From: Minisyncoccota bacterium
GTDB lineage: Bacteria > Patescibacteriota > Minisyncoccia > Phycocordibacterales > UBA9973
NCBI GenBank assembly: GCA_041664465.1
Contig: JBAYKP010000001.1
Coordinates: forward strand, 68,204-132,203
DNA: 64,000 nucleotides
Direction of reading: 5' to 3'
The position numbers were made by a program, and so were the translations under genes. The notes under the pieces were generated by a model. The model made no database searches, was not told the origin of the DNA, and saw only the letters and a program-made list of their open reading frames with translations. Below, piece after piece: positions 3,631 to 59,296 of the stretch. Every line of letters starts with the position of its first letter. The stretch's first letter is position 1.

Positions 3631-4863
3631 TTATGCCACAATACAGCCACCTAGGCAAATGTCGCCATCGTAGACTACGATAGACTGACCTTTATCCACC
3701 AGTACATTTTTATTAAAAGTTATTTCACAGGTCAGACCTGTGCAGACTACTTTGCAATCTAAAAGCTCTCCGTGGTAACGAATTTGAGCAGTATACCCGC
3801 CTTGACTCGTCGGCGAGGCAGGAGCTTTATTTTTTTCTGGTATCTCTAGAATCCAATTTGCCTTACTACATAGGACCGTCCTATGTAGTATACCAGTTGG
3901 ACTGGTATATTCTTCCCCTAGGCAAGGCCTAGGGGAAACTGTAATTGTGTTTTTTTCTATATCTTTTGAAACTACATATAAAGGTTTGCTATTATCTTCA
4001 TTTTTGAAAATTGTAAATCCGTGACGTTCTCCGAGTGTGAAGAATATCGCACCGTCGTGTGAACCTATAACTTTTTCTTTTTTATCCTCTTCTCGGCGAG
4101 CAAGTAATACATCCCCCCTCTTAGTTTCAATATAATGTTTAAGAAAATCTTTCATATCTAAAGGACCTAAGAAGCAGACACCTTGACTGTCCTTCTTCAC
4201 TGCTGTCGGAAGTTTATATTTCTCTGCTAATTTGCGCACTTCTGTCTTCTCTAAATGTCCTACTGGAAATAAAGTATGACTCAAATCATCTTGAGTAAGA
4301 GTCCAAAGAAAATATGATTGGTCTTTAGAGGTATCGGGAGATTTAAGTAGGTAATTCTGAATTTTTTCCTCCCCTGCTAAGGGGAGGTGGCTCCTAGCCG
4401 GAGGGGTCTGACCCCCTCGCCCTTCGGGCACTCCCCCTTGGCAGGGGGAGATTGAATTCACTGCATAATGCCCTGTTGCAATAAAATCTGCTCCACGCTC
4501 TTTTGCAAATTCCCAAAAGACTCCAAACTTCACCATGCGGTTGCACATTACATCTGGGTTTGGAGTGTTCCCCTTTTTGTACTCTTCTATCATATAGTCT
4601 GCCACACCTTTCTTGTAAGCCTCTTCTGCATCACATTCTAAAAATGGTATATCGAGATGTGCACAGACTCGCATTGCATCACGTCTTTCATCCTTCCAAG
4701 TGCACTCTATAAAGTCCGGCGACCACGTACGAATAAAAACCCCAACGACGTTGAATCCTTGATCTTTAAGAAGTGCTGTCGCGACGGAGCTATCCACTCC
4801 ACCCGACACACCCACAAATACAGTTTTATTTATTTTCTTTCCCATCTTGCGAAAATTCCACAA
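3631..4863 (-). CDS. mnmA: tRNA-specific 2-thiouridylase MnmA, enlarged by in-frame palindromic insertions
   Basis: MGKKINKTVFVGVSGGVDSS (PP-loop), FIATGHYA, DQSYFLW, ICLGG. The likely true start is M at 4845. The protein is ~410 aa against ~360 typical, because of the inserts at 4368-4450 and 3866-3935. Confidence 0.9.
   Translation of the reverse strand: MWNFRKMGKKINKTVFVGVSGGVDSSVATALLKDQGFNVVGVFIRTWSPDFIECTWKDERRDAMRVCAHLDIPFLECDAEEAYKKGVADYMIEEYKKGNTPNPDVMCNRMVKFGVFWEFAKERGADFIATGHYAVNSISPCQGGVPEGRGGQTPPARSHLPLAGEEKIQNYLLKSPDTSKDQSYFLWTLTQDDLSHTLFPVGHLEKTEVRKLAEKYKLPTAVKKDSQGVCFLGPLDMKDFLKHYIETKRGDVLLARREEDKKEKVIGSHDGAIFFTLGERHGFTIFKNEDNSKPLYVVSKDIEKNTITVSPRPCLGEEYTSPTGILHRTVLCSKANWILEIPEKNKAPASPTSQGGYTAQIRYHGELLDCKVVCTGLTCEITFNKNVLVDKGQSIVVYDGDICLGGCIVA
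3728..3740. repeat. short palindrome caggtcAgacctg (AGGTC-N-GACCT module) inside mnmA
   Basis: Perfect 6-bp arms. The same module is found at 5355-5410. Confidence 0.4.
3866..3935. repeat. three adjacent GC-rich palindromes inserted in frame in mnmA
   Basis: ctacataggac-c-gtcctatgtag (11-bp arms), taccagt-tgg-actggta, and cccctaggc-aag-gcctagggg (9-bp arms). They encode ...HRTVLCSK...SPRPCLGEE. Confidence 0.7.
4368..4450. repeat. 83-nt composite GC-rich palindromic element inserted in frame in mnmA
   Basis: cctcccc-tgctaa-ggggagg, gagggg-tctgac-cccctc, and ctccccc-ttggca-gggggag hairpins in an otherwise AT-rich gene. It encodes ...PCQGGVPEGRGGQTPPARSHLPLAGEE... between the conserved GHYA and DQSYFL motifs. 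Confidence 0.75.
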
Positions 4864-5747
4864 GGAAGTAATCTTTTACTCCCACTTTCTTCTATAACAA
4901 GCTCCCCTCCCTCTATTTTACCTTTATAATCCTTCATTAAATCTCGTAAATTATTTTCGTAAACAATAGAAGAATACCCTGCAGTATACCCATTTATAAG
5001 AATAAATAAAGGGTCATCTGAGAGAACTTGCCCACATAAATTCATAAGATTTAGAAAATCTTCTTCTATCTTCCAAAGTTCATCTTTCGGACCATGCCCA
5101 AAAGATGGTGGATCCATAATGATTGCATCATATTTTCTTCCTCTCTTTACTTCTCTTTTCAAAAATAAAACTACATCTTCTATAAGCCATCTGATAGAAG
5201 CATCTTTGAGTCCTGAGAGTTCTGCATTTGTCCTTGCCCATTCTACTGCATTTTTAGATCCATCTACGTGGCAAACTTCCGCTCCAGCTAAAGCAGCAGC
5301 AAGTGTCGCTCCGCCAGTATAAGCAAATAAATTTAAAACAGAAATTGGTTTATTCCCATAGGTCAGACCTAGGGACTTTTTACTTTCTGCCCCTAGGTCT
5401 GACCTATGGGAATTCTTAATCAATTCTTTCATCCATTCCCAATTTGAAAGTTGCTCGGGGAAAAGTCCTATGTGTTTAAAAGAAGTCGGCTTTATAGAAA
5501 ATTTTAAATCTCCATAAGATATATTCCAATTATTTGGAACACCGTTTTTAATTATCCATTTATTCTTTGTGCCATTACGAATAAATTCCAAGTGAGCTTC
5601 TTGCCACTCTTTATCATTTAAATTCTTTTTCCAAAGAGCTTCAGGATCCGGACGTGACATAGTATACTTGCCATATCTCTCAAGCTTTTGTCCCTCGCCT
5701 GAATCAAGTAATTCGTATTCTTTTTGTTTTGTAGTTTTTAAAATCAT
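4830..5747 (-). CDS. class I SAM-dependent rRNA methyltransferase, RlmI/RlmK-like (COG1092 / PF10672-like)
   Basis: VLNLFAYTGGATLAAALAGA (SAM-binding motif I) and KYDAIIMDPPSFGHG (motif IV). The overall order resembles RlmI/YccW-type 23S rRNA m5C methyltransferases. It carries an in-frame palindrome at 5355-5410. Confidence 0.65.
   Translation of the reverse strand: MILKTTKQKEYELLDSGEGQKLERYGKYTMSRPDPEALWKKNLNDKEWQEAHLEFIRNGTKNKWIIKNGVPNNWNISYGDLKFSIKPTSFKHIGLFPEQLSNWEWMKELIKNSHRSDLGAESKKSLGLTYGNKPISVLNLFAYTGGATLAAALAGAEVCHVDGSKNAVEWARTNAELSGLKDASIRWLIEDVVLFLKREVKRGRKYDAIIMDPPSFGHGPKDELWKIEEDFLNLMNLCGQVLSDDPLFILINGYTAGYSSIVYENNLRDLMKDYKGKIEGGELVIEESGSKRLLPCGIFARWERK
5355..5410. repeat. 20-bp perfect inverted repeat (cccataggtcagacctaggg ... 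ccctaggtctgacctatggg) with a 16-nt spacer, in frame inside the methyltransferase gene
   Basis: Read directly. It encodes the extra segment ...ESKKSLGLTYGNKP... immediately before the SAM-binding motif. Confidence 0.7.
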
Positions 5748-5757
5748 TCTTTTTAAA

Positions 5758-6429
5758 TTATTTAAGGTATTTTGCTATGTTTTTTTTATGTTCAGTAAAA
5801 TTCACTGCATAATGTACTTTACCATCTTTATCATGAAGATAAAATAGATAAGAAGTGACTATTGGATTTATCGCAGCTTTTATTGCCCGAAGTCCTGGAT
5901 TTCCAATAGGTTTTTGTGGTAAACCACTTTCTTTATATGTCGCAGGGGCTATATCAACCTGGAGAGGAATACCTAGTTTTATCCTTTTCCATAAAATCCC
6001 AGAGATTATACCTATGTCTTCCTTGCCACTCGCTTCCTTCTCTAAGATAGAAGCCATTATTATAATATCTTCCAAGCTTCGACCTGACGACTTTATATCT
6101 TGATCAAGTAGCAATACTCTCTTCGTAAAATTTAAAGTCATTGCCTTTAATACTTCATCTGGCGTAGCAAAAGGGAAAAAGAAATACGTATCAGGAAACA
6201 AGTACCCTTGCTTACTCCTAGGATCATTTAGAAATACATCTTTATTAAAATTTGAAATTTTTTCTGAAAGTAATCTAACTATATCTTCATTGGTACTACC
6301 TTCTATAAAAGTAATTTTAATTTGATCTATTTTATGGTCTCCTCTTATTGCTGGCCATAAGATAAAAGAAAACAAAATAACAACTAAAAATACTACTACG
6401 TACTTTATTTTTTCACTTAAATTTTCCAT
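5758..6429 (-). CDS. mltG: endolytic murein transglycosylase MltG (YceG family)
   Basis: An N-terminal TM segment, then QGYLFPDTYFF, ASILEKEA and GLPQKPIGNPGLRAIKAAINP motifs typical of MltG. The start is taken at M 6429 (MENLSEKIK...) rather than the upstream M at 6474. Confidence 0.8.
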   Translation of the reverse strand: MENLSEKIKYVVVFLVVILFSFILWPAIRGDHKIDQIKITFIEGSTNEDIVRLLSEKISNFNKDVFLNDPRSKQGYLFPDTYFFFPFATPDEVLKAMTLNFTKRVLLLDQDIKSSGRSLEDIIIMASILEKEASGKEDIGIISGILWKRIKLGIPLQVDIAPATYKESGLPQKPIGNPGLRAIKAAINPIVTSYLFYLHDKDGKVHYAVNFTEHKKNIAKYLK

Positions 6430-6430
6430 A

Positions 6431-7729
6431 TTATATAGGCAAATCTGAAGGTGGCTTTGCAATCTTGGATTCAATACGCTTGAAGCTTGGGGTCTCAGAA
6501 ACCATACCTGGGAAGTGATAAATAGTAGCTAATTCTTCAAGAGAAAGAACAAATATCTGAGATCTACCAGATGGGAAAAAGGCAGATATCAAGCTCGGAT
6601 ATTTTATAGAGTTCTGGATTGGAGGATGGAAGAATACTCGTAAACGATAGAAGTCGAGCATTCTCTTCTTGATCTTAGTCAGTGCGAGTCCTGTAGGGTC
6701 TGCCCAAGGTGCATCAAACTGAGTAGCATTTAAACGTTCAAGCTGGTTGGAATTGGGCTGAGCAAATTGGCGAAAAACAAGACGGCAAGACTTGCGAAGC
6801 TCATTGAACTTTTCAAGAGAATGCAGTCTCTTATCTGCAAATACTATAATTCTAATACCAACATCAAAATGTATCTGCCCAAGACATGCCGTCATCTGCT
6901 TGACGATAAGATCCAAGAATCCAGGAGCTCGAACTTCAAAAGTATCTATACCACCGAGACCCATACCTTTACCATATTTCGTAAAGGGCTCAAGCATATT
7001 TCTAATATATTCTTCGGCATAATCATAAAAGTTGAGATGCTTGTGAGTCAGAGGACCGTGATACATCTTGATATCTTGTCTGATAATTATCTGAATCCAC
7101 ATTTGCTGACCTTTTGGCAGAGAACCTAGATATTCAATAGTAGGAGTAAGCGGATCAACTTTGAACTCTTCTTTAATCCCACTTTTCATATCATCCATCT
7201 GTTTGTATGTCCTTATAGGCTGAACATCATCTTTTTCTTTGGCGAATTCAGCACCCCACATATTCCAATCTCCGTTTTTCGTGTATTGAGGAATATTCCA
7301 AACATAATCTTCAGCTTCCATAACTTTGGCTTGCGGATATTGAGCGTATATCTGAGTCTCTACCAAGTCTCTGATTCTAGATGGGGTACGAATATAAAAA
7401 TGTACTCGTCCATCAATAGAGACCATTTCAAGTGAAAACCAAAGCCACGGAGCACCTATCATATATTCTTCCCAGAATCCTTTCTTACTTCGATGATAAA
7501 AAGCATTCGAGAAAACGAGCTCCATCGCGGCTGGAGTCTTGATCACATCTCTTGGGACTTGAATTTCAAGAAGCACCCATTTAATACCAGCAATAAAACG
7601 CTCTTGTCGGTAGTGATGCCACAAATATACGGCTGCATACGCTAAAGGAATCGGCATCAAGTAACCGATGAAAACGATCAGCATTTGTAAAAGATTGAAA
7701 GTATGAGTATTAAGAAAGTCTTGTATCAT
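6431..7729 (-). CDS. conserved hypothetical protein, N-terminal membrane anchor, no recognisable catalytic motif
   Basis: 432 aa, with a TM segment near the N-terminus (LLQMLIVFIGYLMPIPLAYAAVYLW). No Walker A. Contains W-rich segments and ends ...SLEELATIYHFPG.... Confidence 0.4.
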   Translation of the reverse strand: MIQDFLNTHTFNLLQMLIVFIGYLMPIPLAYAAVYLWHHYRQERFIAGIKWVLLEIQVPRDVIKTPAAMELVFSNAFYHRSKKGFWEEYMIGAPWLWFSLEMVSIDGRVHFYIRTPSRIRDLVETQIYAQYPQAKVMEAEDYVWNIPQYTKNGDWNMWGAEFAKEKDDVQPIRTYKQMDDMKSGIKEEFKVDPLTPTIEYLGSLPKGQQMWIQIIIRQDIKMYHGPLTHKHLNFYDYAEEYIRNMLEPFTKYGKGMGLGGIDTFEVRAPGFLDLIVKQMTACLGQIHFDVGIRIIVFADKRLHSLEKFNELRKSCRLVFRQFAQPNSNQLERLNATQFDAPWADPTGLALTKIKKRMLDFYRLRVFFHPPIQNSIKYPSLISAFFPSGRSQIFVLSLEELATIYHFPGMVSETPSFKRIESKIAKPPSDLPI

Positions 7730-7870
7730 ATTTTACCAAACTCTAAGATTGCTAGATGAAGTGAAAAATCCAAACAATATAGCAATTAATATAATGCCTA
7801 AAATTATTAATATTATGTTTATAATGCCACGATTATACATACAAGTATTATAGCATATTATTGCAAAAGA

Positions 7871-7904
7871 AAAGCACTACTCCCGTAGGGAGTAGTGCTT
7901 TTCT
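7871..7904. terminator. rho-independent terminator hairpin (bidirectional) downstream of the sigma-r4 gene
   Basis: aaaagcactactccc-gta-gggagtagtgcttttc. Perfect 11-bp stem flanked by A/T runs. Confidence 0.65.
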
Positions 7905-7914
7905 TGTTCTAAAT

Positions 7915-15642: not shown

Positions 15643-17640
15643 ATGTATATAGTCACAGTCATTCCAATACAAAAAGGATTCCAAAAGGAAAACCTCTCTT
15701 ACTTTTCGCCACAAGATATTCCGCTTGGAAGTATCGTCTCTATCCCTATCAAATCTAAAACCGTAGATGCAATTGTAATAAACGTAGAAGACGCTCGTAA
15801 TTTAAAATTTGACTTAAAAAAGGCTGATTTTCAATTAAAAAAGATAATCGGGGTGAAAGGTCATTCCCCTTTCTCGTCTGCCTTTTTTAGTGCTTGTGAA
15901 AAAATGAAAGATTATACAGTGAGCAATACTGGTACTATTATTAAAGCGCTTCTTCCTAGTGCTTTTTTAGAAAATTTAACCGCCTTATCGGCGGTCCGCC
16001 GAAAAGGCGGAAAGGAAGACTCCATAGAAATAAGTCCAGAAGAAAATATTAATGAAAAAATAGAACTAAAAAATATCAAACAAGAAAAATTAATATTCCA
16101 AGCTCTGACACCTGATCGTATGAGCTGGTATAGGACACTCATAAGAGAAGCCTTTGCTAAGAAAGAATCCGTCTTCATCTGCGTCCCGACTCATTATGAT
16201 ACAGAACAATTCAAGAACGAGCTCACGAAAGGTATTAGCCAATACGTCTTCTCTTTCCATGGAGATTTAAATAAGAAAACTCTCATTAGTAGCTACAACT
16301 CTTGCATCAATGAACCTCATCCGATACTTATCATCGGAACTGGAATGTTCTTGTCAATCCCGAGAGACGATATTAAAACTATCATCATAGAACATGAGAA
16401 TTCCGACGCTTACAAACAATATGCTAGACCTTTCATTGATATCAGAACTTTTGCTGAAATACTTTCTTCTATAAATAAAGTTAAACTAATTTTCGGTGAT
16501 ACGCTTCTCCGCCCAGATACACTTTATAGGCACGATGAAGGCGAGCTTGGCGAAGTCGCCTCTCCCTTATTTCGTTTACCACAAGCTGAAAGGCAAATGG
16601 TCGTAGATATGAAGGAAGAAATAGATGAAAAAGGTTCAAAGACTTTCACTGTCTTATCAGAGACAACAAAAAAGATGATCTCTTACGCAATAGAACACAA
16701 TGAATCTGTATTATTGTTTACTATACGTAAAGGACTTGCTGGGGTGACAGTCTGCCACGATTGTGGGAATACACTTCTCTGCCCTAATTGCTCTACCCCC
16801 GTAGTCTTGTATGGATCCAAGCAACGTAATGCTACGAAGATAGTAAATTCGCGTATATTTATGTGCAACAAATGCGGACACAAAGAAAATACCGAAGTAA
16901 GATGTGCTATTTGTTCTAGTTGGAATCTTACCCCGCTTGGTATTGGTACTGACAGAGTATATGAAGAGGTTTCGAAACTTTATCCAAATACAAAAATAAT
17001 CCAGATGGATAAAGAGACAATTGGTACAGATAAAGAAGCTAAAGAAGCAATAACCTTATTCTATAAAAATCCTGGAAGCATTCTCATAGGAACTGAGATG
17101 GTTTTCTCTTATTTAAATACGGGGGTTATACATAGTGCTATCATTTCGCTCGATGGACTTCTCTCTATTCCAAGTTTCAATATTACACAAAAGATTCTAC
17201 ACATAATGGAAAAGCTCCATGAGATAACGAAACGTAATCTCGTAATCCAGACTCGTATCCCAGAGAATGGAATCTTGGAGCATATTCTAAATGGCAATGT
17301 CCTACCCCTCTATCGCGAAGATTTGAAAGAAAGGAAACAGTTTGGCTATCCACCATTTAAACGACTTATAAAAATAACTTTCGCAGGATCTGCCACAGAT
17401 ACAGAGAAAGCCCGCTCTTTCATAGATAGATATCTAGGAGGATATGAGCCACAGATATTCAGTGCCTTTATAGGGAAAGTGAAAGGTGAATACATTACCA
17501 ATACAATCATCAAGATAGATCCTACTCTCTGGCCATTACCGATAGATGACAAGAATACTTTAAGCACACACCTCTCGGAGAATCTCCATCATCTCTCCCC
17601 ATCATTCTCTATAAACGTAGACCCCGAAGATTTGCTATAA
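15643..17640 (+). CDS. priA: primosomal protein N' (PriA) homologue with degenerate helicase ATPase motifs
   Basis: PriA architecture is present: an N-terminal 3'-DNA-binding-like domain, and the Cys-rich zinc region CHDCGNTLLCPNCSTPVVLY...MCNKCGHKEN...CAICSS. Walker A (GxxGSGKT) is replaced by ALTPDRMSWY, and DEEH is replaced by IIEHENSDAYKQ. Confidence 0.75.
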   Translation: MYIVTVIPIQKGFQKENLSYFSPQDIPLGSIVSIPIKSKTVDAIVINVEDARNLKFDLKKADFQLKKIIGVKGHSPFSSAFFSACEKMKDYTVSNTGTIIKALLPSAFLENLTALSAVRRKGGKEDSIEISPEENINEKIELKNIKQEKLIFQALTPDRMSWYRTLIREAFAKKESVFICVPTHYDTEQFKNELTKGISQYVFSFHGDLNKKTLISSYNSCINEPHPILIIGTGMFLSIPRDDIKTIIIEHENSDAYKQYARPFIDIRTFAEILSSINKVKLIFGDTLLRPDTLYRHDEGELGEVASPLFRLPQAERQMVVDMKEEIDEKGSKTFTVLSETTKKMISYAIEHNESVLLFTIRKGLAGVTVCHDCGNTLLCPNCSTPVVLYGSKQRNATKIVNSRIFMCNKCGHKENTEVRCAICSSWNLTPLGIGTDRVYEEVSKLYPNTKIIQMDKETIGTDKEAKEAITLFYKNPGSILIGTEMVFSYLNTGVIHSAIISLDGLLSIPSFNITQKILHIMEKLHEITKRNLVIQTRIPENGILEHILNGNVLPLYREDLKERKQFGYPPFKRLIKITFAGSATDTEKARSFIDRYLGGYEPQIFSAFIGKVKGEYITNTIIKIDPTLWPLPIDDKNTLSTHLSENLHHLSPSFSINVDPEDLL

Positions 17641-38367: not shown

Positions 38368-38910
38368 ATGATTAAAATTGTTCAAAGTGAAGATCCAGTC
38401 CTACGCAAAATATCAAAGGAAGTTCCTCTCGCTCTCATCAGCAAACCGAAAATACAAAAAATCGTACAAGATATGATGGTGGCTTTAGATTCTCAAGATG
38501 ATGGTGTAGCTATTGCTGCTCCACAGATAGGAGTATCACTTCGTATCTTTGTAATCTCTGGAAGAATTTTCGATGAAGATTTCATTAGAGGAAAAGGCTC
38601 AACGCAAGGCGATCTCTACAAGAAAGCTCGTCGCCCTGATATGGTCTTTATCAATCCAATATTGAAGAAGATATCTAAAGATAGAAAGCTCCTATCCGAA
38701 GGATGCCTCTCTGTCCGACCTCTATATGGCAAAGTCCGCCGTGCCACTCGTGCCTCAGTCGAAGCTTATGATGAAAATGGCAAGAAATTTAGCAAAGATG
38801 GAAATGGATTACTCGCTCATATTTTTCAACACGAGACAGATCATCTAGATGGAATACTCTTCACAGACAAAGCAAAAGATATACACGAAACGCTTTTAGA
38901 TGAAGAATAA
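38368..38910 (+). CDS. def: peptide deformylase
   Basis: GVAIAAPQIG (motif 1), EGCLSV (motif 2) and HETDHLDG (motif 3). Confidence 0.9.
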   Translation: MIKIVQSEDPVLRKISKEVPLALISKPKIQKIVQDMMVALDSQDDGVAIAAPQIGVSLRIFVISGRIFDEDFIRGKGSTQGDLYKKARRPDMVFINPILKKISKDRKLLSEGCLSVRPLYGKVRRATRASVEAYDENGKKFSKDGNGLLAHIFQHETDHLDGILFTDKAKDIHETLLDEE

Positions 38911-38911
38911 A

Positions 38912-38936
38912 CCTAGCAAGAACGGTTCTTGCTAGG
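38912..38936. repeat. REP palindrome cctagcaagaac-G-gttcttgctagg (12-bp arms), followed by two half-copies that overlap the 3' end of the RAYT gene
   Basis: Perfect palindrome. Half-repeats ttcttgctagg run to ~38975. Confidence 0.75.
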
Positions 38937-38955
38937 TTCTTGCTAGGTTTTCTTG

Positions 38956-39636
38956 CTAGGTTTGAGGTTCTAGGGTTTCAAAATAATTTTCAACAAATTC
39001 CTTAAAAGATTGTTTATTATGAAAATAATCTGGAAAATTATCTTTATTTAAAATACTATTTTCTATTCTATCATCTCCTGTATAATCTTGATAACTAGAA
39101 TATTTATATGATTCTAAAAAGTTCTTCATATCTACTGATGACTTATTCAAATTATCTTCCCACTCAGGAAATTCTATCTCTAATGAATTAAGATGAATAT
39201 ATGCAAATAATTGTCTTAAATAATTATCATCATTCCCTACTAATTTAGCTTTAAATAATCCTCCAAATAATGCTCCTTTTCTTTGATATTTTATATTAAA
39301 AAACATTGAATATCCTACTCCTAATTTTCTCATAAATTTAGTTATACCACCATCAACATCTTGTCTAACTAATATGTGAAAGTGATTGTTCATCAAACAC
39401 CACGCACCAATAGAGATAATACTCTTTTCTTTTTTGATTTTTAAAATATCATAGTATTTTTTATTTTGATTATTTACAAGATTATCAATCCGAAAAGATT
39501 CTTCAGAGTTTGCGAGATAAAGAAGCATAATAAATCTTTCATAATCTCCTTTGATTTTAAAAATTACTCTCTTATCAATACCCCTATTATAAATATGGTA
39601 ATATTCTCCTGTTATAAATGGATCTTTCCTTAACAT
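38956..39636 (-). CDS. IS200/IS605-family Y1 (HUH) transposase, REP-associated tyrosine transposase (RAYT)-like
   Basis: GEYYHIYNRG..., LMNNHFHILV (HUH motif) and ...QLFAYIHLNSL (candidate catalytic Tyr). It is flanked on both sides by the same 25-bp REP. Confidence 0.6.
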   Translation of the reverse strand: MLRKDPFITGEYYHIYNRGIDKRVIFKIKGDYERFIMLLYLANSEESFRIDNLVNNQNKKYYDILKIKKEKSIISIGAWCLMNNHFHILVRQDVDGGITKFMRKLGVGYSMFFNIKYQRKGALFGGLFKAKLVGNDDNYLRQLFAYIHLNSLEIEFPEWEDNLNKSSVDMKNFLESYKYSSYQDYTGDDRIENSILNKDNFPDYFHNKQSFKEFVENYFETLEPQT

Positions 39637-39662
39637 AATTATATTATATCAATTTCAAACGC

Positions 39663-39687
39663 ACCTAGCAAGAACGGTTCTTGCTAG
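39663..39687. repeat. REP palindrome copy (same orientation as 38912) plus a half-copy
   Basis: cctagcaagaacggttcttgctagg, followed by tagttcttgctagg. Confidence 0.75.
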
Positions 39688-39716
39688 GTAGTTCTTGCTA
39701 GGTTCTATAAAATATA

Positions 39717-40295
39717 TTACTTCCTTTTTATAAAACCCCAAAAAATTGTTATTATGCCAAAAATAAATGGAATTAAAGCTACCTTATAATTATTTGAATT
39801 AAAAAATGAAATAACCCCTGCTATAATTAAAAATATACCGAAAAGTAAATTGTAATAAAAATAAAATTCTTTAGGATTTGATTTATCAAAATTTATCCCA
39901 ACCCCTTTAAGAATTGTAAATATTAATGGATTTTGTATTGCAATAACCTTTTCTGTAAAAGTATTATCATTTCTTCTATTATAACTAATAAAACCAGCTA
40001 CTAAAAACACAAAAAGAAGCATTGGTATAGTATAAAGAAAAACAGGAAGCATTTCTTTTAATCCAGATAATCCACTTGTTAAAAGCATCACGATGACAAC
40101 AAATAAAATTATTAACAAGAATATAGATATACCTGTTTTAAATATTTCCTTTATTTTTGTTTTTGTTTTTTTATCTACTTCATTAATAAATTCAACTGGA
40201 ACTACTTCTTGAACAGATTCACTAGTTATAATTTTCTCTGAAACATTATTCACATTTTGTTCTTGATTCATAAATAAATTATACCACATGGTCAA
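39717..40295 (-). CDS. hypothetical polytopic membrane protein
   Basis: 192 aa with four predicted TM helices. It lies between REP copies 39663 and 40351. Confidence 0.4.
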   Translation of the reverse strand: MTMWYNLFMNQEQNVNNVSEKIITSESVQEVVPVEFINEVDKKTKTKIKEIFKTGISIFLLIILFVVIVMLLTSGLSGLKEMLPVFLYTIPMLLFVFLVAGFISYNRRNDNTFTEKVIAIQNPLIFTILKGVGINFDKSNPKEFYFYYNLLFGIFLIIAGVISFFNSNNYKVALIPFIFGIITIFWGFIKRK

Positions 40296-40350
40296 GTAAT
40301 ATTGCGAATAGTCTCACGAAATATCAAAAGGTGATATCGTGATATCGAAA

Positions 40351-40375
40351 CCTAGCAAGAACCGTTCTTGCTAGG
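40351..40375. repeat. REP palindrome copy in inverted orientation (central C)
   Basis: cctagcaagaac-C-gttcttgctagg, preceded by the direct repeat gtgatatcgtgatatcg. Confidence 0.7.
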
Positions 40376-40404
40376 TGGAGGAGGTGTGATATACTCTGTG
40401 GTAT

Positions 40405-41280
40405 ATGAATACAGAGAAAAAGAATCTAAAATTTATATTCTTTGGGACACCCTATGCCGCAAGTAAGACATTGCAAATACTTAAAGAAAGAGGATATATA
40501 CCAGAAGTGATTGTGACCTCTCCCGATGCAAAAAAGGGGCGTGGCTTGGAAATGCACGAAACGTCAGTATCAACTTGGGCTAAGGAGAATAATATAAAAT
40601 GCTTAAAGCCTGAAAAAATTGATGAAGAATTTATAAATAATATTTTCCCTAGCCACAAGTCCGACTTGTGGCCGATACTTTCTGTAGTTGTGGCTTATGG
40701 GAAAATACTCCCAGAAATACTAATCAAAAAGCCTGAATTTGGAACTATAAATGTTCATTATTCCCTTCTTCCAAAATACAGAGGTGCATCTCCTCTTGAG
40801 GCTTGCCTATTAAATGGAGATGAAGTTACTGGGGTAAGTATTCAGCAGATGGAATATAAATTAGACAGTGGGCAAATATTACGAGAAGAGAAAATAGATA
40901 TAGGTATAAATGATACTAAAGAAGAATTACGTGAGACTCTCATAAGTCTAGGAGGAAATGTCTTATGTGATATTTTACCCCAAATAGTAAACCAAGAAAT
41001 TAAATCAAAAGCTCAAGATGAGAATCTAGCGACCTTCTGTAAGAAAATTAAAAAAGAAGATGGGGAAATCAATCTAGAAGAAAATGCTAAAGAGAATTGG
41101 AATAAATACAGAGCTTACTCTGGCTGGCCTGGGGTATTCTTCTTTGCAACTAAACATAATAAAAAGATAAGGTGCAAAATAACCAAAGCTAAATTAGAAA
41201 ATAATCAATTTATTATTGAAAAAATAATACCGGAAAGTAAAAAGGAGATAGATTATGAATCTTTCTTAAAACAAAATTAG
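40405..41280 (+). CDS. fmt: methionyl-tRNA formyltransferase
   Basis: KFIFFGTPYAA, VVVAYGKILP, INVHYSLLPKYRGASPL. It carries a 21-bp palindrome (40653-40673) in frame (...PSHKSDLWPI...). Confidence 0.85.
   Translation: MNTEKKNLKFIFFGTPYAASKTLQILKERGYIPEVIVTSPDAKKGRGLEMHETSVSTWAKENNIKCLKPEKIDEEFINNIFPSHKSDLWPILSVVVAYGKILPEILIKKPEFGTINVHYSLLPKYRGASPLEACLLNGDEVTGVSIQQMEYKLDSGQILREEKIDIGINDTKEELRETLISLGGNVLCDILPQIVNQEIKSKAQDENLATFCKKIKKEDGEINLEENAKENWNKYRAYSGWPGVFFFATKHNKKIRCKITKAKLENNQFIIEKIIPESKKEIDYESFLKQN
40653..40673. repeat. palindrome gccacaagtc-c-gacttgtggc in frame inside fmt
   Basis: 10-bp arms. A near-identical element (gccataagtccgacttatggc) lies inside rnhB. Confidence 0.65.
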
Positions 41281-51889: not shown

Positions 51890-53356
51890 TTAAAATAAAG
51901 ATGGCTGAACTTTATAAAATTGAGGATGAACAAAATCTTTCATGAAACTTTTAGCATATGATTTATATCCACCACGATAACTTTTGGAAATTGAATTTAT
52001 ATACTCTTCCATTGAATTTGAATTTAACACTTCGCAAAGGGCATATAGATCAACATCTTTATTTTTTGGTTTTATACAATAACCAGAATAAAAACTTGTT
52101 TTTTCGTCTTCTATTACAAAAAAGTGAGGAGTGAGATTCATTGTACTAGTTATTATTTTTTTACCAAAACCAGTTTTTAAACTTTGGTTTCTTCCAAAAG
52201 AATAAAATTCTTCATAATTTTTACCACCACCCTTGTCTCTTTTTTCTAAAATATCACGATTATATAAAAAATATTTATATGCTTCTGGATATTTATTTAT
52301 AAAAATATTTTTAGGAATTATTCTTTCATTTTTATACGGAAAAATCAAAAAAAGATTCTGATTTTTCCCTTTATAAGTAGATGCTTTAATAATTGGAACA
52401 CACAAATTTCTCTCTATTTTAAAATTATCTTTATAAAAATATATTTTATCTATTTTTTCAGGAGAAAATATATAAACATCATCTTTTAATGTAGCAATTC
52501 CATAATGGATGTCCGCTATTTCTTGAAGTGTTGAATATTTTTTATTTAATTTATCTATTTTTTTAGAATATTCTTCACTTAAAAATTGCCATGGTTTTAA
52601 CTTATCTTCTATATTTTTCAATATCTTTTTATAAACAATATCATTAAAATTATTTTTATAGTTCTCTGTATATAAAAAATTATGGGTATTTTCTTTATTT
52701 AAAAATGTTATGGCGGTGTAAGTTGTTGCGTCTTTAAATACCTGAAAGTGATCAAAATTAATGATTTTTGTTAAATGTGGATAAATTAAATTTCTTAAAT
52801 TTCTCCCAGCACTAGAGTGAAAATGAGAGTTAGGTGTAATAAAAGAAAGTTTCCCGTTTTCTGTTAATAAATTCAGAGACTGCTCAAAAAAACAAAAATA
52901 TAAATCAATGGAGCCATTAGATGCTGATATAAACTTCTTTTGTATTTCATCTCTTTTTTCATTAAGATTTTGTATTCTCACATATGGAGGATTACCTATT
53001 ATAAAATTAAATTTCTCTTTAAAATCATGAAAACAAAAATCATTAATAATTGAGTTATATTGGGTAATTTCTTCATTAGATAATTCTTGTAAATTTTGTT
53101 TTGTTTTGTTTATATATTCTTCTGAAATGTCAATAAAATAAAGATTGTTTTCAATTACATCTTTTATTGATTTTCCAGATATTTTAGAAAATTTCTTAAC
53201 TATTGGAATAGAAAAAGCACCTTCTCCACATCCAGAATCTAATATTTTTTCTGATCCTGTTATTTTTGTATCTTTAAATACTTCATCAATCATAAAATCA
53301 ACTATCCATTCCGGAGTAAAAACAACGCCATTTTCTTTTTTAGATTTAACATTCAT
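51890..53356 (-). CDS. N6-adenine DNA methyltransferase (gamma-class; TaqI/Eco57I-like)
   Basis: GVVFTPEWIVDFM (motif X), LDSGCGEGAF (motif I FxGxG) and IIGNPPY (motif IV) in gamma-class order. A C-terminal target-recognition region. Confidence 0.8.
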   Translation of the reverse strand: MNVKSKKENGVVFTPEWIVDFMIDEVFKDTKITGSEKILDSGCGEGAFSIPIVKKFSKISGKSIKDVIENNLYFIDISEEYINKTKQNLQELSNEEITQYNSIINDFCFHDFKEKFNFIIGNPPYVRIQNLNEKRDEIQKKFISASNGSIDLYFCFFEQSLNLLTENGKLSFITPNSHFHSSAGRNLRNLIYPHLTKIINFDHFQVFKDATTYTAITFLNKENTHNFLYTENYKNNFNDIVYKKILKNIEDKLKPWQFLSEEYSKKIDKLNKKYSTLQEIADIHYGIATLKDDVYIFSPEKIDKIYFYKDNFKIERNLCVPIIKASTYKGKNQNLFLIFPYKNERIIPKNIFINKYPEAYKYFLYNRDILEKRDKGGGKNYEEFYSFGRNQSLKTGFGKKIITSTMNLTPHFFVIEDEKTSFYSGYCIKPKNKDVDLYALCEVLNSNSMEEYINSISKSYRGGYKSYAKSFMKDFVHPQFYKVQPSLF

Positions 53357-54918: not shown

Positions 54919-55037
54919 ATTAAACTAAACCGCTAGTTGTCGGGTAGTAGTAGAAACTGCTATTCACACTAGCGGTTTTCTATTTATCTAATTAAGGTTC
55001 CAATTCTGTCCCTCCCCACCTCCCCACCTTCCCCACT

Positions 55038-55070
55038 CAAAACCCCCTAGCTTTGCTTCGGGGGTTTTGT
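55038..55070. terminator. bidirectional rho-independent terminator
   Basis: aaaaccccc-tagctttgcttc-gggggtttt. Confidence 0.65.
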
Positions 55071-55094
55071 TATTGAGGAATTTATAGGAATCAA

Positions 55095-55796
55095 TTAGTG
55101 TACAACTACTGTATGGGCATTATTGGCGGCTGATTTCTTTGCTACCATACGAGCAACTACTATGATTGCTAATACCAAGAGTATGAACATAATCCATTGG
55201 AATAGTGAACTTGGTAAGAAGCTACCAGAACCTTTCAAGGACAAAGCTGTGACTCCATTGGTGTCTACTTGCTGTGTTGCATAAGGTTGATAAGCACTTG
55301 CTACCATCATATTGTTGGAGTAACCTCTGTTGGCATCGAAATTTACATACTGACCAGTATTACCTTTGTTGCCTGTGGCTGTTGGAATTGTAGTAGTAGT
55401 CGTATTTGCATTTATGACAGAAGCTCCTTGTGTATTACCAGTGGTAACATATCTGACAGTTTGCTGTTGGGGTGCATATTGGACGACTTGCTGTTGCGGA
55501 ACGTACTGAACAGTTTGCTGTTGAGGTACGTATTGTATCTGAGTTGTAGTTGGCTGTGCATATACATAAGTATAAGGTTGCCTTACATAATTGCTATTAA
55601 TAGAATTATTATAATAAGAAGGAGTGCTAAGGTCTGTAACACTTGTGCTATAGCCATTATTATAATATCCATCACTATAATAAACAGCGGCAGAAGCATC
55701 ATGATACGAAACGGCAAGAATAGCAAAGATTCCGAGAGCTATTAAGTTTTTTAAAATATTCTTTTTCATAAGCCATATTATATCATATAAGTACAT
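55095..55796 (-). CDS. secreted Y/Q/T-rich repeat protein with a C-terminal TM anchor
   Basis: Signal peptide (likely start MKKNILKNL at 55769), QYVPQQQTV x3 repeats, T-rich segments, and a C-terminal TM helix FQWIMFILLVLAIIVVARMVAKK. Confidence 0.45.
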   Translation of the reverse strand: MYLYDIIWLMKKNILKNLIALGIFAILAVSYHDASAAVYYSDGYYNNGYSTSVTDLSTPSYYNNSINSNYVRQPYTYVYAQPTTTQIQYVPQQQTVQYVPQQQVVQYAPQQQTVRYVTTGNTQGASVINANTTTTTIPTATGNKGNTGQYVNFDANRGYSNNMMVASAYQPYATQQVDTNGVTALSLKGSGSFLPSSLFQWIMFILLVLAIIVVARMVAKKSAANNAHTVVVH

Positions 55797-55883
55797 ACTT
55801 TGTCAAGCACTTAAACTACGGCTAAAACCCTTGATAAATAAGCCCAAAAAAGGTAAAGTATATTTGTTTCGCTTTTAAAAATT

Positions 55884-58538
55884 ATGATAACGAAATTGAA
55901 AAATAACAAAAAGAGAGTTCGCCTAGAGGACTATATCTCCCCTGTTAGCTACAATCTGACCTTACATCCTGACCTTTTGTCTTCTACTTTTTCGGGACGC
56001 GAAATTATAAAAATAAAAGTGGATAAAGAAATAAAACAAATCACTTTGCATAGTAAAGATATAGATATAGAAACGGTAGAGCACATAGCAGATGGCACGC
56101 AACAATTTGCCCATAAAATCACATACGATGCAAAGAGAGAAACTGCAACTTTCTATTTTAAAAATAAAATAAAAAAAGGGCAGAGCGAGCTCTCAATTAT
56201 TTTCAGTGGTATCATCAATGATAATTTGAGAGGATTTTATAAAAGTAGATACATACTAGATGGTGAAGAGAAATTCATAGCCACGACCCAGTTCGAAGCA
56301 ACAGATGCTCGCCGTGCTTTCCCTTGCTTTGATGAGCCAGCACACAAAGCAATATTTGAAGTATCGCTCGTAATACCTGAGAATCACACAGCCATATCAA
56401 ATACTTTACCTATTGAAATAAAGGAGCACAGTCTCGGATACAACATAGTATCTTTCTCTCCCACGCCGATAATGTCTACTTACCTACTCGCATTTATTAT
56501 CGGCGAGTTTGAATATGTGGAGGGATATACCCGTCCGAACGGGTCATCCGGGCAGGCTAAGGACAAGGTTCTTGTCCGTGTATTCACAACTTCTGGTAAA
56601 AAGCATCAAGCCAAATTTGCATTGGAAGTCGCTATCAAATCACTTGAATTTTATAATGAATATTTTGATATACCCTATCCACTTCCTACCTTAGACCTCA
56701 TCGCTATCCCCGACTTCGAAAGTGCGGCAATGGAGAACTGGGGGGCCATCACTTTCCGCGAGACGGCTATACTCGTTGATGATCTACATACTTCCCTTTC
56801 AAACAAACAATGGGCAGCGATAGTGATAGCCCACGAATTGGCACATCAGTGGTTCGGCAATCTAGTGACGATGCATTGGTGGACAGACCTCTGGCTCAAT
56901 GAAGGCTTTGCTTCATATATGGAAAATTTATGTACGGATCACCTCTTTCCAGACTGGCATGTATGGGATTTAAATATTGCCGATAGATATGCTGTCGCTC
57001 TCAAGCTTGATTCACTTGCCACTTCACATCCAATAGAAGTAGTCGTCCACCACCCAGATGAAATAAGTGAAATCTTTGATATGGTCTCTTATGCTAAAGG
57101 CTCTGCGATGATAAAAATGCTGGCAGAATATCTAGGGCACGACAAATTCCGCGATGGGCTACGTCACTATTTGAAAAAGCACAGTTATGGTAATACCAAT
57201 ACCGTAGATCTCTGGAATGCTTTTGAGAAAGTAAGCAAAAAGAAAGTAATAGAAATAATGAATTCTTGGACGAAAGAAACCGGCTATCCACTCGTGACAA
57301 TTTCCCCTAGGCAAGGCCTAGGGGAAATGTGGGAAATCAGACAAGAGCGATTTTTCTCAAGTAGAGTGAAAGCTTCTGAATATAAAAATTCAAAAAGTAA
57401 AAAACACTTGTGGCAAATACCTGTGAAATACGAAAGCCTGTCGGATAATAGAGAAGTTATGGATATGCTCATGACTAAAAAATCTGCTCCAATGATTGGC
57501 ACCTCTATCGGCAAAGTAAACAAAGAAGAAGGAACATTTATACGAGTCTGCTATGATCAAGAGACTCTTAAAAAATTGAAAGAAGAAATACAAAATGGGA
57601 AACTTTCTGTGAAAGATAGACTGGGAGTTATTCGTGATATGTTCGCTCTGGCTGAAGGTGGATACATCAGTACGATAGAAGTACTTGAATTCTCTCTCGT
57701 ATATAAAAATGAAACAGAGTTCATCGTCTGGTCTGAAATAGCGAGTGGTATAAATAGAGTGGCAAATATATTGGGCGAAGAAAAATTTAAAAATCTATAC
57801 GATAAATACGTACTCACATTATTTAGTCACATCGCAAAAGAATTGGGGTGGGGAGAAACCCCCTCGCCCTCTGGGCACTCCCCCTTAACAGGGGGAGACA
57901 AACACTCACAAGTTTTCTTGCGGAGTCTAGCACTCTCTATGTCGGCACATTATGGAGACAAGAAAGTAATTACCGAAGCCAAAAAACTCTTTAAAAATAA
58001 GGCTAAAATGCCAATAAGAGCTGACATCCGCGGAGTAGTCTACAACATTGTGGCTGCAAGTGGCGGGGAGAAGGAATGGAAACTTTTCGAAAAGTTATAC
58101 AAAGAAGAAGAATTTCATGAAGAGAAGGATAGATATGCTAGGGCATTAACTTCATTTAAAAATAAAGATCTACTTCGGAAAACTTTAAACTTTGCTATAT
58201 CAAGAGACGTTCGTGTTCAAGACGCTCCATTCATAATAGTGGCCGTCTGGCAGAATAGTATAGGTAAAGACATTACTTGGAAGTTTATAAAAAGTAATTG
58301 GAAAATAATTGTGAAAAAGTTTGGCGAGGGTGGACATTTCCTCTCCCGAGTCCTCTCTCCTCTCGGTACTCATACAAAAGAAAAAGATTACAAAGACATT
58401 AAAAATTTCTTTGCTAAAAATGTCGCCCCTGGCTCTGCCCGCACCCTCCTCCAATCCTACGAACGCATCGAGTCCAACATCGCTTGGCTCAAAGATGACA
58501 AAGCCTCTATCAAATCTTGGCTAACAAAAAATTACTAG
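55884..58538 (+). CDS. pepN: aminopeptidase N (M1 family)
   Basis: GAMENWG, the HELAHQWFGNLVTMHWW zincin motif, and LWLNEGFASY. It carries in-frame palindromic inserts at 57304-57324 and 57845-57897. Confidence 0.9.
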   Translation: MITKLKNNKKRVRLEDYISPVSYNLTLHPDLLSSTFSGREIIKIKVDKEIKQITLHSKDIDIETVEHIADGTQQFAHKITYDAKRETATFYFKNKIKKGQSELSIIFSGIINDNLRGFYKSRYILDGEEKFIATTQFEATDARRAFPCFDEPAHKAIFEVSLVIPENHTAISNTLPIEIKEHSLGYNIVSFSPTPIMSTYLLAFIIGEFEYVEGYTRPNGSSGQAKDKVLVRVFTTSGKKHQAKFALEVAIKSLEFYNEYFDIPYPLPTLDLIAIPDFESAAMENWGAITFRETAILVDDLHTSLSNKQWAAIVIAHELAHQWFGNLVTMHWWTDLWLNEGFASYMENLCTDHLFPDWHVWDLNIADRYAVALKLDSLATSHPIEVVVHHPDEISEIFDMVSYAKGSAMIKMLAEYLGHDKFRDGLRHYLKKHSYGNTNTVDLWNAFEKVSKKKVIEIMNSWTKETGYPLVTISPRQGLGEMWEIRQERFFSSRVKASEYKNSKSKKHLWQIPVKYESLSDNREVMDMLMTKKSAPMIGTSIGKVNKEEGTFIRVCYDQETLKKLKEEIQNGKLSVKDRLGVIRDMFALAEGGYISTIEVLEFSLVYKNETEFIVWSEIASGINRVANILGEEKFKNLYDKYVLTLFSHIAKELGWGETPSPSGHSPLTGGDKHSQVFLRSLALSMSAHYGDKKVITEAKKLFKNKAKMPIRADIRGVVYNIVAASGGEKEWKLFEKLYKEEEFHEEKDRYARALTSFKNKDLLRKTLNFAISRDVRVQDAPFIIVAVWQNSIGKDITWKFIKSNWKIIVKKFGEGGHFLSRVLSPLGTHTKEKDYKDIKNFFAKNVAPGSARTLLQSYERIESNIAWLKDDKASIKSWLTKNY
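57304..57324. repeat. palindrome cccctaggc-aag-gcctagggg in frame in pepN (the same element is found in mnmA at 3915-3935)
   Basis: Identical 21-mer to the mnmA copy. Here it encodes SPRQGLGEM. Confidence 0.7.
57845..57897. repeat. GC-rich composite palindromic element in frame in pepN (same family as mnmA 4368-4450)
   Basis: ggggtggggagaaaccccctcgccctctgggcactccccc-ttaaca-gggggag shares ccccctcgccct.cgggcactccccctt..cagggggag with the mnmA element. It encodes GWGETPSPSGHSPLTGGD. Confidence 0.7.
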
Positions 58539-58570
58539 AACAAAACTGACTAGGTCTTGCCTAGTCGGTT

Positions 58571-59296
58571 TTAGTGTATAAATGACTTGCGATGGATTGG
58601 GGTCTGACCGTGAGTTCTGATGGCAGAATAGTGAGCGCGGGTACCATAACCCATATGCTTATTGAAACCGTATTCGGGGTAATCCAAAGCATACTTTGTC
58701 ATAATCCTATCTCGCGAAACTTTCGCCACAATGGATGCCAAAGAAATAACCGGATGAAGCTCATCCCCTCTTATAATCGTCTCCTGATTTATGTACTCTA
58801 CTGGGGCATGAAGTCCACCATCGAGAAAAATCTTGAACGAAGAGAGCGAAACAGAATCTTCCAAATTTTTATCGGCGTCGGAGCCCTTTAGGGTAAGCCC
58901 TGAAAAATTTGGAAGATTCTGTGAAGCGACTTTATCAAGTGACTGATTCAAAGCTTTCTGAATACATTTTGCAATTCCAAATTTATCAATATTCTCGGGG
59001 GAAACAAAAGACACAGCATAGTCGCAAAGACCTTCGGTCTTTGCGACTTTCAAATATTCAAACCACTCTTCCCTTTGCTTCTTACTAAGCTTCTTCGAAT
59101 CTTTTAATTTTGGTAATTTTACATAGGACGGTCCTATGTCTTTTTTGCCATAAGTCCGACTTATGGCTGATTCAATAAAATTATTATCCTTAATTAAAAA
59201 AGCACAAACAGCCACTGGCCCTGCCAAAGGGCCCCGACCAACCTCATCTATGCCAATTATGTATTTTGTGGTGTCTAAAGCTCCCATATAGAACAA
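58571..59296 (-). CDS. rnhB: ribonuclease HII
   Basis: IIGIDEVGRGPLAGPVAVCA (DEVGRG catalytic motif). It carries two in-frame palindromes at 59121-59167. Confidence 0.85.
   Translation of the reverse strand: MFYMGALDTTKYIIGIDEVGRGPLAGPVAVCAFLIKDNNFIESAISRTYGKKDIGPSYVKLPKLKDSKKLSKKQREEWFEYLKVAKTEGLCDYAVSFVSPENIDKFGIAKCIQKALNQSLDKVASQNLPNFSGLTLKGSDADKNLEDSVSLSSFKIFLDGGLHAPVEYINQETIIRGDELHPVISLASIVAKVSRDRIMTKYALDYPEYGFNKHMGYGTRAHYSAIRTHGQTPIHRKSFIH
59121..59167. repeat. two palindromes (acataggac-g-gtcctatgt and gccataagtc-c-gacttatggc) in frame in rnhB
   Basis: They are related to the mnmA element ctacataggaccgtcctatgtag and the fmt element gccacaagtccgacttgtggc. They encode ...RTYGKKDIGPSYVKLPK.... 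Confidence 0.7.

Follow-up and report, generated by a model that had tools for sequence, protein, structure and literature searches.

Palindromic inserts in housekeeping genes

The region analysed here (the window) is a 64,000-nt stretch of contig JBAYKP010000001.1 (positions 68,204-132,203, forward strand; assembly GCA_041664465.1, Minisyncoccota, UBA9973), in which short palindromes lie inside housekeeping genes and a Y1 transposase gene is flanked by palindromes of its own. The window is AT-rich (26-41% GC across 2-kb bins) and about 87% of it is covered by open reading frames (ORFs) of at least 100 aa. Pfam confirmed the hosts that a first inspection of the letters (the sequence-only reading) had named: MnmA, an RlmI-like SAM methyltransferase, Fmt, an M1 aminopeptidase (pepN) and RNase HII (rnhB). 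Homologues of MnmA, RNase HII and the Y1 protein carry the names Candidatus Nomurabacteria, Paceibacterota or Parcubacteria, in agreement with its proposal of a host from the candidate phyla radiation (CPR). The palindromes that it had quoted exist at or near 3726-3742, 3864-3890, 3913-3937, 4366-4456, 5352-5413, 40652-40672, 57300-57328, ~57846-57899, 59020-59048, 59121-59139 and 59147-59167, and each of them leaves its host ORF intact. A 72-nt element in rnhB (58851-58922) and the Y1 gene (38956-39636) had been overlooked. Loci fetched from related genomes or metagenomes are given as L-numbers (L001, etc.), and orthologous sites were compared with relatives at 64-87% identity.

The coding-sequence interiors of the window contain 10 perfect GC-rich hairpins (stem of 8 or more), versus an expectation of 1.19 ± 1.08 in dinucleotide shuffles and 1.13 ± 0.92 under codon permutation. 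Their sequences also recur between genes, as had been noticed from the letters. CCCCTAGGCAAGGCCTAGGGG is found exactly twice in the window, in mnmA and in pepN (chance expectation 0; stretch in common, 26 nt), and the hairpin composites of the same two genes have 41 nt in common at 90% identity (pepN composite versus 4411-4451). Twin units connect mnmA 3864-3890 with rnhB 59121-59139 and fmt 40652-40672 with rnhB 59147-59167. Furthermore, L002 has the sequence of a 27-nt mnmA insert in its methyltransferase gene, and parts of the mnmA composite are found in L066 and in pepN. Palindrome types other than the one flanking the Y1 gene have 2-3 copies within the 64 kb.

In the orthologue alignments, most palindromes coincide exactly with in-frame inserts of 18-84 nt, every length being a multiple of 3, and the corresponding sites of relatives are empty or occupied by other palindromes. 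The intact ORFs and the insert lengths, all divisible by 3, suggest that the inserts are translated, and the predicted peptides that span them include ...ITVSPRPCLGEE..., ...SAISRTYGK... and ...TPSPSGHSPLTGGD.... One and the same unit is read in two frames, as AISRTYG in rnhB and as SHKSDLW in fmt and in the mnmA gene of L002, which suggests that selection rather than targeting sets the frame. The initial description of the elements as GC-rich perfect palindromes holds for most of them; the arms of 3864-3890 and 59121-59139 reach only 38-44% GC, and 4366-4456 consists of five small hairpins.

The mnmA gene (3631-4863, minus strand; Pfam tRNA_Me_trans; alignable to PDB 2HMA and 2DER) hosts at least five resident elements, all on the minus strand. 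Over 83 orthologues taken from GTDB species genomes, some of them clipped at contig ends, the length of MnmA ranges from 311 to 446 aa, with inserts at about eight sites; the 103 insert segments of these genes have 51% GC versus 37.5% in the conserved core columns. Of 24 close orthologues (68-86% identity), some have nothing at these sites and others have unrelated peptides there. The composite at 4366-4456 is made of five consecutive GC-rich mini-hairpins (fold energy -56.6 kcal/mol) and adds roughly 26-31 residues between GHYA and KDQSYFL, which stay unaligned against the MnmA structures of the PDB; the extra segment that had been described between GHYA and DQSYFL is supported, at about 26 residues relative to solved homologues. 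At the DNA level, the 85-nt composite is missing from L001 and L003 as a clean in-frame gap, and L002 and L010 have it with stems in slight decay.

This GHYA/SKDQSYFL site carries in other genomes an element of ~75-115 nt, here called family A, which is found in both orientations in different genomes: forward in L005, L007, L009, L016, L027, L045 and L063, and reverse in L004, L006, L018, L029, L030 and L037. The encoded peptides are FREATGGGVPF...KELRE in one orientation and SSFQSSLTPF...PPPVASQG in the other. Family A has the core blocks GCGACGGGTGGGGGCGTGCCG ... GGGGTTAAGGAGCTTCGA, which are conserved, and an inner hairpin that varies; its outer stems are complementary and specific to the lineage. 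In L001 the right half only remains.

The other mnmA elements are shorter. At 3913-3937 lies TTCCCCTAGG-CAAGG-CCTAGGGGAA, a 21-nt unit of the repetitive extragenic palindromic (REP) type extended by TT/AA, whose peptide SPRPCLGE produces a 6-aa gap with respect to 2HMA exactly at PRPCLG. Other perfect palindromes occupy this site in other genomes, palindromes of this type also flank Y1 transposase genes, and an identical copy is present in pepN. The unit TACTACATAGGAC-C-GTCCTATGTAGTA (3864-3890; 13-bp stem; peptide ILHRTVLCS) is perfect in the window, L018, L005, L019, L012 and L030, and shows uncompensated decay in L001, L006, L002 and L013. The 27-nt GC-rich quasi-palindrome at 3796-3822 encodes the in-frame insert PASPTSQGG in the window and L001; it corresponds to a clean 27-nt gap in L002 and L003 and to an 8-aa gap relative to the PDB MnmA proteins. 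A GC-rich in-frame insert of 18 nt (4088-4105, LARREE) is a clean 18-nt gap in L001, L002 and L003, with related 'LA.RE' inserts at the same place in L005, L012, L018, L027, L034 and L083. The palindrome CACAGGTC-A-GACCTGTG (3726-3742, CTGLTC) is found at the same site in L001, L003, L005, L007, L012 and L018, with A, C or T in the loop and constant length.

Two further indels of mnmA were observed in relatives. An N-terminal insert, PNRRVLPTGQAGGVKP, with a GC-rich hairpin is present in L012 (10001-10130) and at the mnmA 5' ends of L058, L067 and L076. It is bracketed by a diverged direct duplication of ~21 nt over the TVFVGVS codons, being the only insert with a duplication resembling that of a target site, and it is older. 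On the other hand, L048 (at 5087) differs from L050 and L064, in genomes 95% identical, by a 39-nt in-frame indel with 15-nt direct repeats (TACAAAA[A/C]TCGAGAG) at its ends; this is a duplication or deletion and involves no palindrome.

The RlmI-like methyltransferase gene (4830-5747, minus strand; Pfam Methyltrans_SAM) has an insertion hotspot between NWEWM and VLNLFAYTG. In the window, it is occupied by a doublet resembling the REP doublets forming hairpins (REPINs): CCCATAGGTCAGACCTAGGG in two inverted copies separated by 16 nt (5352-5413, minus strand), with 23-nt arms that are 100% complementary and the peptide HRSDLGAESKKSLGLTYGN. The arms match unit 1 of mnmA in L018, L005 and L001. 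This 19-aa insert is absent from L001, L008, L014 and L017 and present in L018, and other genomes carry other inserts there.

In fmt, GCCACAAGTC-C-GACTTGTGGC (40652-40672, plus strand) encodes SHKSDLW, a net gain of 4 aa with respect to Fmt 3TQQ, and is one compensated pair apart from its rnhB twin. The pepN gene has two sites, both on the plus strand. Site 1 (57300-57328) is ATTTCCCCTAGG-CAAGG-CCTAGGGGAAAT, identical to the mnmA copy. Its peptide, SPRQGLGE, next to SPRPCLGE of MnmA, bears out the idea that either orientation yields a similar peptide. The site contains a decayed GCCACAAATCGGACTTATGG-type unit in L085 and its left half only in L086, and there is no gain in length versus human PSA. 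The second (approximately 57846-57899) is the GC-rich composite GWGETPSPSGHSPLTGGD, homologous to part of the mnmA composite and, like it, a string of small hairpins instead of a single palindrome; a 30-nt block of it is absent from L085 and present in L086, and human PSA shows an exact 10-aa gap at SPSGHSPLTG.

In rnhB (elements on the minus strand), the 72-nt hairpin element at 58851-58922 has 20-nt perfect arms around a 32-nt spacer and encodes QNLPNFSGLTLKGSDADKNLEDSV. It is absent from 4 of the 22 close orthologues, and the L086 copy, with five compensated arm changes, is still perfect over 19 bp. Site 1 (59121-59167) holds two tandem units, ACATAGGAC-G-GTCCTATGT and GCCATAAGTC-C-GACTTATGGC, with the peptide AISRTYGKKDIGPSYV; it is empty in L084 and filled by one different unit in L085 (TGCATAGGTCAGACCTATGCA) and by another in L086 (CCCACCAGTCCGACTGGTGGG). 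The RNase HII proteins of the PDB have a gap spanning 'ESAISRTYGKKDIGPSY', and 59121-59167 is hypervariable in alignment A3. The third palindrome, AGTCGCAAAGACC-TTC-GGTCTTTGCGACT (59020-59048, VAKTEGLCD), is a resident, non-polymorphic among close orthologues, with a 4-aa gap only relative to distant PDB homologues. An intergenic copy, GACTAGG-TCTTG-CCTAGTC (58548-58566), lies in the gap between pepN and rnhB. AlphaFold2 models of MnmA (alignment A1) and RnhB (A3) were poor (mean pLDDT 57.5 and 43.6), the inserts being their least confident parts.

Regarding these alignments, the proposed match between extra peptide and palindrome is found for the MnmA GHYA insert, the PRPCLG gap, SAISRTYGK..DIGPSYV of RnhB, the 10-aa gap of PepN and the 19-aa insert of the methyltransferase, and at most sites the insert is absent or replaced in relatives. 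It does not extend to 3726-3742, 59020-59048 and pepN site 1, where an insertion is not demonstrable and the length does not change. The first two, whose length is the same in all close orthologues examined, may be old residents, judging by this constancy.

A further perfect palindrome, with an 8-bp stem, in dnaE (60664-60685) was rejected: it lies in the conserved motif GSVRDVARALG with no indel, relatives break it by synonymous changes, and it is a chance product rather than an element. A nested GC-rich hairpin, CCGCCTTATCGGCGGTCCGCCGAAAAGGCGG, at 15984-16012 in ORF 15643-17640 (-23 kcal/mol in a fold of 15972-16020) encodes LSAVRRKGG and may be another element; the only orthologue found, in L012, lacks 3 aa by comparison and has a different sequence at this point. 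Scanning for GC-rich islands gave 135 of them and was dropped as unspecific, since most were Gly/Ala-rich coding motifs.

The Y1 transposase gene and its palindromes

The gene at 38956-39636 (minus strand) encodes a Y1 (HUH) tyrosine transposase (Pfam Y1_Tnp, E 2e-8) that resembles the REP-associated tyrosine transposases (RAYTs). The motifs H85-F86-H87 and Y146-I-H-L-N are invariant across four homologues (alignment A2), and the family is 70-80% identical across Parcubacteria, a high conservation which suggests RAYT-like behaviour. In the PDB, no sequence similar to this protein was found up to E = 1.

The gene has a palindrome of the type ACCTAGCAAGAAC-N-GTTCTTGCTAGGT on both sides. Downstream there is a cluster (38910-38961) formed by AACCTAGCAAGAAC-G-GTTCTTGCTAGGTT and two extra half-sites; upstream, a copy with one extra half-site (39663-39703). 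This REP recurs a third time, with its centre inverted, at 40350-40376, between ORF 39717-40295 and fmt. The same arrangement is seen in relatives. The Y1 genes of L013 and L075 have a lineage-specific perfect palindrome on both sides, and flanking copies are also present at the Y1 genes of L098, L103, L105, L132, L151, L161 and L162. Those of L002 and L006 start at the edge of the fetched DNA, and their visible downstream flank carries a palindrome; in L006 this flank, CTCCGCTAGGCAAGGCCTAGCGGAG, is nearly equal to an in-gene element of the window.

Moreover, several Y1 genes contain their cognate palindrome in frame, at a fixed position just after the HUH motif: L075 (277-966), L013 (1625-2308), L098, L101, L103, L105, L107, L125 and L161. 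The corresponding peptides are SPRQFLGP, PKPRLGP and SPRxxLGE. The internal copy equals the flanking ones, loop included, in L103, L098, L105, L161 and L075; in L013 the stems match and the loop differs. The Y1 genes of the window and of L002 have no such internal palindrome.

The link was also explored in metagenomes by a JGI scan using TCCCCTAGG-N5-CCTAGGGGA alone, which returned at least 118 stretches, 80 loci with 89 copies being kept. A Y1 homologue is present in 11 of the 80 loci, and 16 of the 89 copies are linked to it, eight inside the Y1 gene (always just after the HUH motif) and eight within 60 nt of its ends. This is far above chance, because one gene of ~0.7 kb per several hundred kb fetched leads to an expectation of well under one copy. 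L100, with two copies 754 nt apart, was excluded from the Y1-linked loci as a tandem duplication on a contig of higher GC with no Y1 hit. Several stretches of the CCCCTAGG type come from the same samples.

Most copies (62 of 89) lie outside long ORFs and 27 inside, so this best-sampled family is REP-like, with a tolerated in-frame minority. All 27 use the only stop-free frame and encode SPRxxLG[E/D], which follows from the requirement of an intact spanning ORF. Besides the Y1 gene itself, their hosts belong to at least 11 housekeeping families: MiaA, MnmA, GatB, the delta' subunit of pol III, ArgRS, a MurD-like ligase, an AlkD-like protein, ATP synthase gamma, SMC, an RlmI-like methyltransferase and an RNase J-like protein. 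In samples Ga0116171 and Ga0116170, the TCCAA/TTGGA variant is common to a REPtron (a Y1 gene together with the REPs on its flanks) and to an in-frame copy in MiaA. Likewise, on the contig of L012 and L149, mnmA and atpG bear the same CAAGG variant.

Origin of the inserts

The elements are probably REP/REPIN-like hairpins spread by RAYT-like enzymes, of which selection retains the copies lying in frame in permissive loops. The basic unit is a perfect 21-nt palindrome, which is also seen in inverted doublets and in composites of 60-115 nt with nested or tandem units, and it would fold as a hairpin in single-stranded DNA. RAYT-like Y1 (HUH) enzymes, among them possibly the Y1 protein of the window, would copy these hairpins to new places or over resident ones, and in a genome that is ~87% coding many insertions would hit genes. 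Purifying selection would then keep the copies with a length multiple of 3, one stop-free frame and a position in loops that tolerate extra residues. The outcome would be recurrent peptides such as SPRxxLGE and AISRTYG in MnmA, PepN, RnhB, Fmt and the methyltransferase, which may later decay, be deleted or be replaced by the variant currently active in the genome.

Mobile repeats, and not ordinary loops, are indicated by the same sequences in unrelated genes and genomes, by both orientations at one site and by the tie to a transposase. The enzymes of IS200/IS605 and TnpAREP have hairpins folded from single-stranded DNA as their substrate, and their cutting and joining does not duplicate the target. 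At rnhB site 1, the sole comparison at the DNA level of an empty (L084) with filled sites (window, L085, L086), no target-site duplication was found, as expected for IS200/IS605-type chemistry. The uncompensated decay of some copies is likewise as expected for elements under no selection.

One feature asks for more than insertion and decay. A single orthologous site holds different yet perfect palindromes in different genomes. At mnmA unit 1, both sides have changed in 8 of the 10 stem pairs, and 90.8% of the cells are paired versus 72% in shuffles (0 of 500 reach the observed value), in a set partly picked for palindromy. Complementary extensions of up to 12 nt, unique to the copy, are found on many of those from the metagenomes. 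Furthermore, the same variant is found in different genes of one genome or sample: mnmA and pepN of the window, the mnmA-atpG pair of L012 and L149, and the Y1-MiaA pair of Ga0116171 and Ga0116170. Decayed copies with uncompensated changes (L001, L002, L004, L006, L013, L015) argue against strong selection at every site. Taken together, the arm sequences favour a process in which the active variant of a genome would be copied over resident hairpins.

Several observations weigh against the spread of the elements by RAYT-like enzymes as just described. Perfect lineage-specific arms are not predicted by simple insertion and decay, to which overwriting, template switching or a similar process has to be added. 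In NCBIfam, the sole hit of the Y1 proteins is REP_Tyr_transpos (NF047646), below its 80-bit cutoff (24.9 for the window, 43.5 for L002). The palindrome around the window Y1 gene is confined to 38911-40376 of the window and matches none of the in-gene palindromes, and the CCCCTAGG type is tied to a different Y1 subfamily (~48% identical) unseen in the window. Of the GTAG and CGTC tags that characterise known REP superfamilies, GTAG follows only one of the three window REP copies (39663-39689) and is present in none of the 88 flanked copies of the CCCCTAGG type, which show T at -1 and A at +1; by eye, a terminal CGTC, also looked for as a mark of Rickettsia palindromic elements, was not consistent among the elements. 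The palindromes at 3726-3742, 59020-59048 and pepN site 1 bring no gain in length over orthologues. Finally, recent mobility was not caught: no case of palindrome insertion polymorphism was found over 10-14 kb in genome pairs 92-95% identical. In the closest pairs compared (L048/L050, 95.4%; L044/L047; L028/L031), indels were limited to a direct-repeat duplication and small non-palindromic cases.

It is possible, though not likely, that the enzyme works mainly by replacement: a vertically inherited RAYT-like protein would overwrite hairpins at fixed 'landing pads' in essential genes, one of them in its own gene after the HUH motif, and would homogenise the intragenic copies to the active REP variant. 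If this were so, the system would be a replicator that renews itself while staying compatible with coding, surface loops of core proteins would be diversified by it as well, and the copy inside the transposase gene could serve autoregulation or self-recognition.

The fixed position in so many Y1 genes, with a variant that equals the flanks where these are visible (except for the loop in L013), could also mean that the hairpins are functional and under selection, either as sites for a domesticated Y1 protein or as structures for mRNA stability or translation, their coding location being incidental. Covariation at fixed sites and the strong conservation of Y1, an argument also made for REPIN-RAYT systems (bioRxiv 10.1101/2021.07.10.451892), agree with this. 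However, close orthologues lack the hairpin or show it in uncompensated decay, the host genes are unrelated with no common regulation, and Rfam covariance models at gathering score detected only four tRNAs in the window and matched no palindrome. A function of this kind is considered unlikely.

Slightly less likely still is an origin by template switching during replication, through quasi-palindrome correction or fold-back copying, which would make or perfect palindromes in mutation-tolerant loops with neither transposition nor transposase. It would account for the compensated arm differences of mnmA unit 1 (8 of 10 pairs) and the 72-nt rnhB element (five changes), for lineage-specific outer arms that are perfectly complementary, for palindromes without gain in length and for the dnaE palindrome, which arose without insertion. 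Nevertheless, it cannot yield identical sequences of 25-41 nt in unrelated genes and genomes or put one element in both orientations at one site, and it leaves the association of one palindrome type with Y1 genes and the clean gains of 18-84 nt over empty sites unexplained. Template switching may still contribute in a secondary role, by making resident copies perfect. Ordinary lineage-specific surface loops with incidental palindromy, or assembly artefacts, are very improbable and largely refuted: the dnaE case is such a chance palindrome and the inserts fall in the least confident regions of two poor models, but the excess of hairpins (10 versus ~1.2), the exact repeats between genes, the GC content of the inserts (51% versus 37.5% in the core columns) and the presence of the same elements in many independent NCBI, ENA and JGI assemblies, which also bears on the chimeras that the sequence-only reading had allowed for, speak against both.

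Relation to known repeats and neighbouring features

Returning to REP/REPIN-like elements spread by RAYT-like enzymes, the closest known systems are the REP/REPIN repeats with a RAYT (TnpAREP), which form REPtrons (Nunvar 2010, PMC2817692; Bertels & Rainey 2011, PMC3116915; Di Nocera 2013, PMC3733652; Corneloup 2021, PMC8266576). Membership is partial. Common to both are GC-rich palindromes of only 20-40 nt, cognate copies on the flanks of a Y1/HUH gene, inverted doublets of the REPIN kind (5352-5413, and 58851-58922 with its 20-nt arms and 32-nt spacer), REP variants that are lineage-specific and shift with the enzyme, and a minority of intragenic copies. Perfect palindromes also fit, being used by one RAYT (TnpAREP) group (PMC8266576). 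The curated RAYT score and the GTAG tag fail: the tag is inconsistent and the Y1 protein is below the cutoff. Other differences are the CPR/Patescibacteria host, unlisted in the 2013 survey (PMC3733652), the conspicuous in-frame share in essential genes, with a fixed position in the transposase gene, and the dense nested or tandem composites inside ORFs. Intragenic REPs are known from Proteobacteria and from further phyla, and many lie in genes for replication and repair (PMC3733652), so the principle itself is already known.

The sequence-only reading had compared the pattern with the Rickettsia palindromic elements (RPEs; Ogata 2000, 2002; reviewed in PMC10969869). The likeness stands as regards selfish-looking in-frame palindromes in unrelated housekeeping genes (here five in the window and at least 11 families in metagenomes) of a small, AT-rich, reduced genome, with either orientation coding and peptide segments added. 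Nevertheless, the elements are not RPEs. RPEs measure ~100-150 bp, whereas the units here have 17-29 nt (basic unit, 21 nt), the window composites ~60-90 nt and one related element ~115 nt; and RPEs lack a dedicated transposase (PMC3733652), whereas these elements are tied to Y1 genes, which supply a candidate. In addition, most copies of the best-sampled family are extragenic. The separation from RPEs was made by description.

The SDR repeats of Nostoc and Anabaena, presented by Elhai in 2008 as 'very small mobile repeated elements', are reportedly nested hairpins of 21-27 nt, also found in genes, with no obvious target-site duplication and no enzyme assigned to them. By description, size and nesting are alike, and the cyanobacterial host is different. 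Miniature inverted-repeat elements (MITEs) such as Correia, Nezha and ERIC are also small non-autonomous repeats able to fuse in frame with ORFs (PMC10969869). They differ in that no target-site duplication was seen here at the one rnhB site compared, in that the whole unit is one hairpin and not a pair of inverted repeats around a core, and in the associated enzyme, a Y1 HUH and not a DDE transposase.

A full-text literature search gave no relevant description of palindromic or RAYT elements in CPR, Patescibacteria or Parcubacteria, in line with the supposed novelty for CPR genomes. In-frame coding palindromes have so far been treated as a hallmark of Rickettsia, where the mobilising enzyme is not known; a similar phenomenon in a very different lineage with reduced genomes, physically tied to a conserved HUH family, makes the mechanism testable. 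The inserts inflate and diversify core proteins, as with the 311-446 aa of MnmA, and can mislead gene calling, orthology and alignment-based phylogenomics in CPR. They are also natural markers of permissive loops and could serve as strain-level markers, and the pattern of replacement at fixed sites may bear on the long-term persistence of REP-RAYT systems.

Concerning the annotation of the contig, exact look-ups and homologue lists did not contain the product of 3631-4863 or those of ORFs 682-1155, 1185-1610 and 1794-3578, and RnhB, the Y1 protein and ORF 62579-63169 do have protein records. Other start-codon calls or pseudogene flags on insert-rich genes are a possible explanation. Apart from the palindromes, the segment 50000-54000 stands out by its low GC (26% versus ~36% elsewhere). 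It contains an ORF similar to Eco57I/MmeI-type methyltransferases (51890-53356) with a MazG-like gene adjacent, and may be an acquired restriction-modification or defence island.

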